A stretch of DNA of 64,000 nucleotides from Dehalococcoidia bacterium (GTDB lineage: Bacteria > Chloroflexota > Dehalococcoidia > Lucifugimonadales > Australimonadaceae). Within the stretch, counting starts at the first letter, position 1, and the number at the start of each line of letters is the position of its first letter. Of this stretch, positions 39,712-41,722 are shown in pieces. Location: positions 763-64,762 of the forward strand of contig CAUZHS010000003.1 in assembly GCA_963579845.1 (NCBI GenBank). The letters run 5' to 3'. The notes under the pieces were generated by a model. It was not told where the DNA came from, made no database searches, and was given only the letters and a program-made list of their open reading frames with translations. The translations under genes and the position numbers were made by a program.

Positions 39712-40374
39712 ATGAGATCCTTCTCTGGTTTTGCTTCGGGCACACGTTCGTTGCCCGTCCCCAGCCCGCTCCTCGACAGCCTTTTGGAGGAGATCAGCGA
39801 TGTGGCGGAATTGAAGTGCACCTTGCGCTTCCTCTGGCATATAGCCCAGGGCAAGGCTCAGCCCCGAGTGGTGACGGCAGCAGCGTTGGCGCAGGACGAG
39901 GTGCTTTTGGCGGCCTTGGGGTCAGCTGAGGAGGTCCAACGGGGCCTCCAGATGGCGGTGGAACGCCAAACGCTGCTCGTTGCCAAAGTGGGTGTGTCGG
40001 GGATTGGTTACGTGCTACACACGCCGGAGAACCGCCGATCGGTTGAAGCCCTGCCCTCGCACAGCACGAATTCCAAAGTCGTGGGAGGAGAGCCGCCGCA
40101 GGAGCGGCTCAACATCTACCGGCTGTACGAGGAGAACATTGGCGCGCTGACGCCCCTGGTGGCAGACGAGCTCCGGGATGCCGAGGACGTCTATCCGGAG
40201 GAGTGGGTATTGGCCGCATTTCAGGAGGCGGTGGCTCAGAACAAGCGTAGCTGGCGCTACATCTCGCGCATTTTGGAGCGCTGGTCGACAGAGGGATTCG
40301 ATAGGGGAGGGCATGGAGAGTCTGGGCGATATTCTCAAACGACTTCAGCAGCGGAATACCTTCGCCGCTTCTAA
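39712..40374 (+). CDS. DnaD-domain replication protein (primosome/helicase-loading accessory)
   Basis: The C-terminal LNIYRLYEENIGALTPLVADELRDAEDVYPEEWVLAAFQEAVAQNKRSWRYISRILERWSTEG matches the DnaD/DnaB-2 domain pattern (...NKRSW.YI..IL..W...G). Confidence 0.6.
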   Translation: MRSFSGFASGTRSLPVPSPLLDSLLEEISDVAELKCTLRFLWHIAQGKAQPRVVTAAALAQDEVLLAALGSAEEVQRGLQMAVERQTLLVAKVGVSGIGYVLHTPENRRSVEALPSHSTNSKVVGGEPPQERLNIYRLYEENIGALTPLVADELRDAEDVYPEEWVLAAFQEAVAQNKRSWRYISRILERWSTEGFDRGGHGESGRYSQTTSAAEYLRRF

Positions 40375-41722
40375 CTACCCTGCTGAGTTGCTTCCCGCCG
40401 AGGAGTCGGAGCAGGACCGCTGTCCTATCTGCGGCGGGCGTGGCTGGGTGCGGTATGATGTGCCAGTGGGCCACGCGGACTTTGGGAAGGCCTTTCCCTG
40501 CGAGTGTCAGCAGACATCTACGGCCGAGCAACGCCAGGATCGCTTGCAACGCTTCAGCAATATGGGCATGCTGGCCCAGGTTGCCTTCGATACCACCGAG
40601 CCCCACGGCCAGGGTACTGCCACGGAGTCTCGCGGCCGGTTCCGCGCCGCCTTCGAGGCAGCCCGAGACTACGCTGAGGAGCCCCAGGGCTGGTTTACCC
40701 TGCAGGGCGCGAGCGGTACGGGGAAGACGCATCTGGCCGCGGCCATCGCCAACCGGTGCATGCAACGGGGGACCCCTGCCTTCTTTGCCCAGGTCCCGGA
40801 CCTTCTGGACCACCTGCGGGCGAGTTTCAGCCCGGAGAGTGAGTTGTCGTATGACCTCCTCTTTGAGCAGGTGAAAGAGGTCTCGCTGTTGGTGCTGGAC
40901 GATTTGGGAGCGCATACCAGCACAGCTTGGGCTGAGGAGAAGCTTTTTCAAGTGTTGAATCACCGTTACGTGAACAACACACCTACGGTTATCACCACGA
41001 ACCTCGCTCTGGACCAGATGGACCCCCGTTTACAGAGCCGGTTGACGGATCCTCGGGCCTCCCGCGTAATGGATCTGGGAGCAGGTTGGACCTCCCAGAG
41101 CGCCGCTCGGATCGGCATGGTGGAGCCGCAAATGTTGGCGCTGATGCGCTTTGAGAACTTCGAGCCCCAGGGCAAGGCCGAGGACAAAGAGGGTAGAGAG
41201 ACCCTAGCGGCGGCTCTGACTGCGGCAAAGTCCTTTGCCGTGGACCCGCAAGGCTGGCTGGTGCTCCTAGGCGATTCGGGAACGGGCAAGACGCACCTTG
41301 CTGTCTCCGTGGCCAACGAGCGCCTGAAGGCCGGTCAGAGCGTTTTCTTCGCTTTCGTGCCCGATCTGCTGGACCACCTCCGCTATACCTTCAACCCCGA
41401 GAGCCGGGTGACCTATGACGAACTCTTCGAGCAGGTGAAGCAGGCGCCGCTCTTAATTCTTGACGACCTAGGCTCCGAAAGCTCCACCGCTTGGGCCCAC
41501 GAGAAGCTCTACCAGATTATTGTCTACCGTCATAACGCCAGACTGCCGACCGTCATGACGACGCGGGGCATCCCCGACCGGGCCAAAGACCCCGTGTCTT
41601 CTCGTATCAACGACCCGCGGCTGGTCACCGTGATCCCGATCGTGGCTCCCGATTACCGGCAGCAGGCGCGCCGTCGGCCCGCGCCTGCTCGCAGGCAGGA
41701 CCCTCCGCGTCGAGGCCGTTGA
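40313..41722 (+). CDS. Helicase-loader-like ATPase with two tandem DnaC/DnaI-type AAA+ modules and an N-terminal Cys4 zinc ribbon
   Basis: Start at ATG 40313, behind GGGGAGGG. The ORF-track start at 40178 lies inside the previous gene. Motifs: [9 protein letters not shown]-x18-CEC; module 1 has [17 protein letters not shown], VITTN; module 2 has [17 protein letters not shown], VMTTR. Confidence 0.8.
   Translation: [469 protein letters not shown]
40574..41641 (+). repeat. Intragenic tandem duplication: two homologous DnaC-type modules of about 168 aa (40574-41080 and 41138-41641; offset 564 nt)
   Basis: Aligned by eye: roughly 55-60% amino-acid identity across the Walker A to Box VII regions. 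Shared nucleotide strings include ctggaccacct and gagcaggtgaa. Confidence 0.8.

Follow-up and report, generated by a model that had tools for sequence, protein, structure and literature searches.

The Loader Gene and Its Tandem Modules

A 64,000-nt stretch of the genome of a Dehalococcoidia bacterium (contig CAUZHS010000003.1 of assembly GCA_963579845.1), referred to here as the window, carries downstream of the replicative helicase gene dnaB an uninterrupted open reading frame (ORF; 40313..41722, forward strand) whose product has 469 amino acids plus a stop. A first-pass annotation described this product as a DnaC/DnaI-type helicase loader in which a Cys4 zinc ribbon is followed by two AAA+ modules in tandem, and the description was supported by separate profile matches for the two halves. 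When residues 1–265 were compared with residues 266–469 by BLASTP, residues 86–257 and 274–445 aligned ungapped with 86 of 172 positions identical (50%, E = 2e-56), bearing out the mutual homology claimed for the halves at an offset of 188 amino acids (564 nt). Run separately on profiles, both halves gave the independent DnaC/IstB-type AAA+ matches that had been expected of them: each alone exceeded the Pfam IstB_IS21 cut-off of 24.1 bits, with 66.2 and 56.9 bits, and each alone matched the NCBIfam PRK08116, DnaI, DnaC and IstB models. The whole protein passed PRK08116 with a score of 237.7 (cut-off 189), which was exceeded only because the scores of the two modules add up, the halves alone reaching 128.6 and 113.3. 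One AAA+ module per chain is the rule in all characterized loader members; two were found here, and this is the feature that makes the window protein a variant of the known DnaC/DnaI loader family. The parts of the product are listed below, with AF2 denoting AlphaFold2 and pLDDT its predicted local distance difference test score.

40313..40360, forward strand: N-terminal amphipathic helix, residues 1–16 (helix 4–16 in AF2), conserved in the Dehalococcoidia-type subfamily
40421..40507, forward strand: Cys4 zinc ribbon C37, C40, C63 and C65, all four Cys invariant in 36 orthologues, pLDDT about 90 with the deep alignment
40568..41083, forward strand: AAA+ module 1 (M1), residues 86–257, from profile matches, internal repeat and motif mapping
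41084..41131, forward strand: inter-module linker, residues 258–273, with pLDDT below 50 at residues 260–263 and variable alignment columns
41132..41659, forward strand: AAA+ module 2 (M2), residues 274–449, from profile matches, internal repeat and motif mapping
41660..41719, forward strand: Arg-rich C-terminal tail, residues 450–469, of low complexity and with varying length in orthologues

The zinc motif was present as annotated (CPIC...CEC), but the spacer between W45 and C63 holds 17 residues and not 18. In the N-terminal helix, L8 and R10 were invariant and E2, L4 and I7 nearly so among 36 orthologues. The protein was modelled twice with AF2, from 36 sequences (mean pLDDT 81) and from 148 sequences (mean pLDDT 87); a disordered linker (residues 15–32) was predicted after the N-terminal helix, then a small beta-ribbon surrounding the four Cys, and helices (residues 64–89) between this ribbon and M1. 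Both modules were individually confident and of alpha/beta type with an identical order of elements. In both, the insertion specific to initiators and loaders was found in the models as a pair of helices that separates beta2 from the Walker B strand, beta3 (161–170 and 180–189 in M1; 349–358 and 368–377 in M2); these helices carry an invariant PDLLDHLR motif, and no helical lid followed beta5 in either module. Each modelled module was superposed by Foldseek on Aquifex DnaC 3ECC (TM-score 0.77, root-mean-square deviation 3.6 Å), DnaI 2W58 and IstB 5BQ5. The database representative listed at 100% identity (P0001) has Ser instead of the Phe of the window protein at residue 92, a position that falls within the F-x-x-x-E-P motif ahead of M1.

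The best solved relatives were E. coli DnaC 6QEL/6QEM, B. subtilis DnaI 4M4W, G. kaustophilus DnaI 2W58 and Aquifex DnaC 3EC2/3ECC. All solved sequence relatives, namely E. coli DnaC, DnaI (B. subtilis, Geobacillus, S. aureus and S. pyogenes), Aquifex DnaC and IstB, have a single AAA+ module, and Foldseek against the PDB returned only single-module matches or poor two-tier AAA+ matches (TM-score of at most 0.26 for p97, NSF and Cdc48). The view that the two-module architecture is unusual among loaders was upheld accordingly, since no loader that has been characterized or solved shows it.

The key residues of E. coli DnaC are the Walker A K112, Walker B E170, sensor I N203, Arg-coupler R216, Arg-finger R220 and sensor II R237, together with a tetrad contacting single-stranded DNA (ssDNA) formed by K143, F146, S177 and Y179; the ATPase requires all five AAA+ residues, and the sensor-I mutant was the worst for loading (Puri et al., bioRxiv 10.1101/2020.10.21.345918). 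These residues were mapped onto the window protein by hidden Markov model (HMM) alignment and the internal repeat, and were counted in 120 and 301 orthologues. The equivalents are as follows.

Walker A: K138 in M1, K326 in M2
Walker B: D196/D197 in M1, D384/D385 in M2
Sensor-I position: N230 in M1, R418 in M2
Arg-coupler position: R239 in M1, P427 in M2
Arg-finger: R243 in M1, R431 in M2
Sensor II: none in M1, R449 in M2 (in APDYR)
ssDNA tetrad: R169/F172/T204/W206 in M1, R357/F360/T392/W394 in M2

Each module was confirmed to have its own Walker A and Walker B (LVLDDLG in M1, LILDDLG in M2), and the TTN of M1 and TTR of M2 were present as annotated. Both P-loop Lys residues were practically invariant (K138 in 301/301 and K326 in 297/301 orthologues), as was the Walker B D196 (298/301), the shortfalls of D196 and K326 being alignment gaps. 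The Arg-finger R431 was found in 298/301, and R243 was Arg in 271 and Lys in 24 of the 301. The tetrad equivalents were conserved in both modules across the 301 two-module orthologues (W206 in 296, W394 in 297, R169 in 295 and R357 in 294). A full catalytic set, comprising the Walker A Lys, Walker B acid, sensor I Asn, Arg finger and sensor II Arg, was present in neither module: M1 has K138, D196/D197, N230 and R243 without sensor II, and M2 has K326, D384/D385, R431 and R449 without the sensor-I Asn, which M2 lacks family-wide. One degenerate ATP site had been raised as a possibility in the first-pass annotation, with M1 taken as intact. The absence of the sensor-I Asn from M2 agrees with this, but M1 is itself without sensor II in the window's subfamily; the idea is right in spirit but too simple, as neither site of the window protein is canonical and M1 is the less constrained module.

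Distribution, Age and Variation of the Tandem

A genome scan with one genome per species gave at least 584 matching stretches, from which 80 loci were kept, and both modules were covered in 80/80. These loci were labelled Dehalococcoidia, Dehalococcoidales, Tepidiformaceae, Anaerolineae/Anaerolineales, Caldilineaceae, Promineifilaceae, Thermoflexus, Thermanaerothrix and Chloroflexales. A protein search yielded at least 120 clusters of about 415–475 amino acids with 50–72% identity at full coverage, and an exhaustive representative search yielded 721 clusters (50% identity level) at E <= 1e-30. Homologues are named in the databases as 'ATP-binding protein [Chloroflexota / Dehalococcoidia]' or 'DNA replication protein DnaC', and the window's organism is, by this distribution, a typical member of Chloroflexota with Dehalococcoidia as its closest named relatives. 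When modules were counted by HMM in 398 retrieved proteins, two were found in 337, one in 57 (many of them fragments), four in 1 and three in 2, with a third three-module protein (P0277) in the same output. The two-module loader is therefore, on the strength of these genomes and proteins, the standard form in Chloroflexota and not a peculiarity of the window genome. The first-pass annotation had allowed that the two-module form might be the common and already described loader type of its lineage. Common it proved to be (80/80 genomes, 337/398 clusters), but a description of a tandem DnaC/DnaI loader was not found in full-text literature searches, which covered papers other than subscription-only ones, and the curated libraries contained no model of a two-module loader architecture. 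The protein is an architectural variant of a known family that is apparently undescribed and is widespread in Chloroflexota.

The annotation also held that the duplication was old and not an assembly artefact, and the nucleotide divergence of the halves and the wide occurrence of two-module orthologues bore this out. In register, the modules share 55% of their nucleotides (63%, 66% and 36% at codon positions 1, 2 and 3), no stretch of identity between them exceeds 11 nt, and a search for direct DNA repeats found none; a recent or assembly-made duplication was excluded on these three grounds. The notion that two neighboring loader paralogues, or a repeat that had been collapsed or expanded, were misjoined into a single ORF by assembly or annotation is consequently given almost no credence: some odd relatives (P0015 and P0122) do resemble artefacts or very recent repeats, but the window ORF is uninterrupted, its halves differ at 45% of nucleotides, and the same two-module single ORF recurs in 80/80 independent species genomes, complete chromosomes included, and in 337 protein clusters. 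Within the same protein, M1 and M2 were 39–53% identical in 119 orthologues, with the aberrant P0015 as the sole exception, and the nearest neighbor of a module was of the same type in 236/238 cases. Since M1 and M2 form separate clades, the duplication is regarded as old, and these data point to one ancient internal duplication that would have come before the family radiated.

At the same locus, relatives with 1, 3 or 4 modules were also found. Single-module relatives have the zinc ribbon and one module with both TTN and APDYR, often behind a long Ala/Pro-rich N-terminal extension, as in P0239. The latter was found at three loci (L081 3947-5557, L082 6001-7611 and L083 135-1745) with the complete motif set and a low-complexity Ala/Pro-rich extension of about 290 amino acids; the dnaB in L082 carries two inteins. 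At the other extreme, P0121 (827 amino acids; L084 6001-8484, on a 64-kb contig of 43% GC) has four tandem modules behind one zinc ribbon, which are 41–65% identical in protein and 57–66% in DNA, modules 1–3 having the full motif set and the last being degenerate. This gene looks real because its modules are clearly diverged, and both P0121 and P0239 lie in a dnaB(intein)-dnaD-loader context. Other unusual proteins may be recent tandem expansions or assembly errors: in P0015 a pair of M1 modules precedes a third copy with a frameshift; in P0122 M1 occurs twice with hardly any difference, the C-terminal tail is repeated and Walker B reads 'DG' in all modules; and P0277 has three modules and shares a 90% cluster with a normal 438-amino-acid protein. 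In a rough neighbor-joining tree of the modules, calculated with no outgroup and with very short deep branches, M1-type modules were parted from M2-type modules, and in the three- and four-module proteins the last module was M2-type and the extra ones M1-type. The single-module clade fell nearer to M1, in a placement that is unreliable, and the single-module form may be either ancestral or a secondary loss by M1/M2 recombination.

Two subfamilies were compared, a Dehalococcoidia-type subfamily A, to which the window protein belongs (118 clusters), and an Anaerolineae-type subfamily B (111 clusters). In subfamily A, M1 has the sensor-I Asn in only 20/118, with S, A or G otherwise, and sensor II is missing in 112/118; its M2 has Arg at the sensor-I position in 86/118 and sensor II in 117/118. 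In subfamily B, M1 is complete (sensor-I Asn in 102/111, APDFR sensor II in 95/111), and the sensor-I residue of M2 is A or S, Asn being found in just 11/111. From these counts, M2 gave up the canonical sensor I early, with the erosion of M1 in subfamily A coming later. The 14 proteins without the second Walker B acid of M1 retain the M2 site, and those without the M2 Walker B (14) or the M2 sensor II (31) retain the M1 N230, R239 and R243, which suggests that motif decay is complementary between lineages, the counts being uncorrected for phylogeny. Within the window's subfamily, conservation is higher for M2 than for M1, at 64 vs. 57% mean pairwise identity.

Gene Neighborhood and Proposed Loading Mechanism

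The neighbors of the loader gene in the window are purL, rplI, dnaB, dnaD, a HIT gene and leuS. The genes from rplI onward are as follows.

37733..38338, forward strand: rplI (ribosomal protein L9), heading a conserved rplI-dnaB-dnaD-loader block and ending 5 nt before dnaB
38344..39708, forward strand: dnaB, replicative helicase of 454 amino acids (Pfam DnaB_C 321.5 bits, DnaB N-terminal domain 102.8 bits), presumably the helicase on which the loader acts
39712..40374, forward strand: gene of a DnaD-domain protein of 220 amino acids (Pfam DnaB_2 40.9 bits, NCBIfam DnaD_dom 42.8 bits, PHROG DnaD-like helicase loader)
40313..41722, forward strand: tandem-AAA+ helicase loader gene (PHROG phrog_50 'DnaC-like helicase loader', 298 bits in two stretches)
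41724..42134, forward strand: gene of a HIT-family hydrolase (Pfam HIT 47.6 bits), starting 1 nt past the loader stop

The position of the loader gene after dnaB and a DnaD-domain gene was confirmed by Pfam for both neighbors, and the DnaD-domain protein is presumed to be a co-loader or recruiter. Among the 80 loci, the DnaD-domain gene lies immediately upstream of the loader in 78, dnaB is upstream in 72 and rplI in 50 (tblastn match to L9); the dnaB and dnaD synteny is kept across three Chloroflexota classes. One domesticated dna[CI] and no dciA were reported for each cultured Chloroflexi genome (Anaerolinea, Chloroflexus, Roseiflexus and Dehalococcoides) in a survey in which all bacterial dna[CI] genes are regarded as domesticated phage genes and the Chloroflexi gene is entered merely as dna[CI], with the duplication unmentioned in the text (Brezellec et al. 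2016, PMC5109545). The conserved synteny, together with this single dna[CI] and the lack of dciA, identifies the gene as very probably that of the chromosomal loader for the replicative helicase, which falls into the DnaC/DnaI branch within the AAA+ initiator clade. A role outside chromosomal replication, as an IstB-like transposition helper or as a prophage or plasmid replication protein lying near dnaB by chance, is suggested by the best Pfam family (IstB_IS21), by the strong match to the phage family phrog_50 and by the phage origin assigned to bacterial dna[CI] genes (PMC5109545). Nevertheless, no transposase or phage genes are adjacent, the NCBIfam IS21_help_AAA score of 141.8 falls under the cut-off of 200, and the synteny and the single dna[CI] without dciA (PMC5109545) also speak against such a role, which is considered very improbable.

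The spacings between rplI, dnaB, dnaD, the loader and the HIT gene are 5, 3, −62 and 1 nt, and no convincing terminator-like site was found between rplI and the HIT gene in the window; because of these two features, rplI through the HIT gene is consistent with a single operon. The HIT gene is tied to the block only loosely, being downstream in 14/80 loci. The annotated 62-nt overlap of the loader with the DnaD-domain ORF proved correct (39712..40374 against a start at 40313) and suggests translational coupling of the two genes. Across 40313-40374, the C-terminus of the DnaD-domain protein and the conserved N-terminal helix of the loader are coded in different frames, and a comparable overlap was observed in many related loci, where the DnaD match runs 20–60 nt beyond the loader start. 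The start at 40313 was assigned from the orthologue conservation of E2, L4, I7, L8 and R10, since the GGGGAGG found 2 nt upstream of the ATG has a spacing that is short for a ribosome-binding site; a longer version from an ATG at 40178 was supported by no orthologue. Farther downstream, leuS (42724-45204, forward strand) is preceded by a complete T-box leader (RF00230, 101.6 bits, 42220-42436) with a promoter-like site at 42179-42208 ahead of it; the leader closes with a terminator-like hairpin (42423-42449) followed by a T-run, and its specifier region (GGGGACUCUUCACCCC) includes the Leu codons CUC and CUU as candidate specifiers.

Bacterial helicase loading is known from three models, E. coli DnaC, B. 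subtilis DnaI with DnaD and DnaB, and DciA; to our knowledge, there is one functional loader unit per chain in all three. In the mechanism proposed for the window protein, the N-terminal helix and zinc ribbon would dock on DnaB in the manner of the N-terminal domains of DnaC and DnaI, and the DnaD-domain protein would carry the complex to DnaA/oriC as in Firmicutes. Judging from the motifs, both modules would bind ATP, and their Arg fingers would link them head-to-tail with modules of neighboring chains into an ssDNA-binding AAA+ spiral that keeps the DnaB ring open. Three two-module chains, with three helicase-binding domains, could in this way fill the six AAA+ positions that are occupied by six DnaC monomers in E. 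coli. The two sites would not be equivalent, M2 having Arg for the sensor-I Asn and no Arg-coupler, and M1 having the Asn and the coupler without sensor II; since they are not equivalent, ATP is probably turned over slowly or at one class of interface only, by analogy with heteromeric loaders with degenerate sites.

Several points weigh against this account. The score of the window protein was under the cut-offs of both the NCBIfam DnaI equivalog (NF006505; 136.5 vs. 228) and the DnaC equivalog (NF005931; 126.8 vs. 357). The zinc ribbon is presumed to be the helicase-binding domain from its position and from an alignment only, a weak one, of the ribbon region with the N-terminal part of B. subtilis DnaI (4M4W_J residues 59 onward). 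Because the set of five residues needed by the E. coli DnaC ATPase is complete in neither site, hydrolysis may be absent or may rely on other residues. The placement of the two modules relative to each other is predicted with little certainty, the predicted TM-score of the models being only 0.49 with 36 sequences and 0.64 with 148 sequences, the four modules of P0121 do not divide evenly into six, contrary to a strict 3 x 2 = 6 model, and the loader family is known from sequence, synteny and predicted models alone.

The main rival is a loader with a single active module, in which the other module would be a nucleotide-binding pseudo-ATPase serving as adaptor or regulator; each DnaB hexamer would then be bound by six chains, whose second modules would make up an outer or stacked tier in the manner of p97 and ClpB. 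Such an arrangement would preserve the 6:6 ratio of E. coli with one helicase-binding domain per chain, and M1 has the marks of a relaxed module: it is less conserved than M2, it has no sensor II in 112 of the 118 subfamily A members and an unconstrained sensor I, and its Walker B has been wholly lost in some lineages. On the other hand, both P-loops are invariant, and the Arg finger, the initiator-specific helices and the ssDNA tetrad are kept in both modules, which would be needless for a mere spacer. The initiator-specific helices of the DnaA/DnaC clade favor open spirals rather than stacked closed rings, the TM-scores to p97, NSF and Cdc48 are low, as given above, and in the Anaerolineae-type subfamily the degenerate module is M2 and not M1. 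The six-chain arrangement is judged unlikely. The concatenated-spiral mechanism in its full extent, in which Chloroflexota would load DnaB by means of a covalently concatenated AAA+ loader of evolvable module number (1–4), the two-module form giving a six-position spiral from three chains with alternating non-equivalent ATP sites and three helicase-binding domains, is put forward tentatively, as a possibility on which we would not yet rely.

A phylum-wide covalent tandem would bear on the number of helicase-binding domains that a DnaB hexamer needs, on which AAA+ interfaces of the loader spiral must turn over ATP, and on the evolution of the loader after its acquisition, reportedly from phage. 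The fixed order of two non-equivalent sites and the existence of relatives with 1–4 modules provide a ready-made system for such questions, for which linked subunits would have to be engineered in E. coli. If the proposal holds, the symmetry of a three-chain spiral would fit that of the DnaB N-terminal collar, a trimer of dimers, and the family would constitute a natural linked-subunit experiment revealing which DnaC-type interfaces must hydrolyze ATP.

Comparison with Known Systems

Among known loaders, E. coli DnaC (6QEL, 6QEM) was the top PDB sequence match (E = 2.4e-22) and the top Foldseek match. It shares with the window protein the AAA+ fold of the initiator/loader clade, Walker A and B, the R-x-x-x-R coupler/finger helix found in M1, the D-(S/x)-Y-R sensor-II tail found in M2 (APDYR, against DSYR at the C-terminus of E. 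coli DnaC) and the ssDNA tetrad, which has equivalents in both modules. DnaC differs in having one AAA+ module per chain and a zinc-free helical N-terminal helicase-binding domain, with six chains per DnaB hexamer, whereas the window protein has two modules, a Cys4 ribbon, a Walker B DD instead of DE and the full motif set in neither site. DnaI of B. subtilis and Geobacillus (4M4W, 2W58) resembles it in the N-terminal zinc-binding region followed by an AAA+ domain, the alignment spanning query residues 30–242, in the Walker B DD and the W after Walker B, and in the DnaD-domain protein alongside, as in Firmicutes. However, DnaI has a single AAA+ module, the window protein scores under the NCBIfam DnaI cut-off, and a second co-loader of B. 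subtilis DnaB type was not seen in the window block; the zinc ligands of DnaI are reported to be three Cys and one His, compared with the invariant Cys4 of the window protein. The uncharacterized DnaC-like ATP-binding subfamily PRK08116 (about 269 amino acids) was the best-scoring curated family, its profile positions 12–235 matching residues 30–246, that is, the zinc ribbon and one module, but it is a single-module family. IstB of IS21 elements (5BQ5, 8Q3W, 8Q4D) shares the AAA+ subfamily Pfam IstB_IS21, and M2 aligns with it as far as the sensor-II tail; nevertheless, IstB has one module and partners the IstA transposase inside an insertion sequence, whereas the window gene is without a transposase and has a conserved dnaB synteny.

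No tandem member of the DnaA/DnaC clade was found among solved structures by PDB sequence and Foldseek comparison, and the window protein would, if the proposal is correct, give the initiator/loader clade its first member with AAA+ modules in tandem. Two AAA+ modules per polypeptide are also found in p97 and ClpB, although only by analogy: p97, NSF and ClpB belong to the classic clade, with helical lids and stacked closed D1/D2 rings, whereas the window modules are without lids and have the initiator-specific insertion. The clamp loader RFC/gamma complex and ORC-Cdc6 offer a second analogy, with non-equivalent ATP sites in a fixed order, some of which bind without hydrolyzing, but in RFC and ORC the non-equivalent sites are supplied by separate genes.

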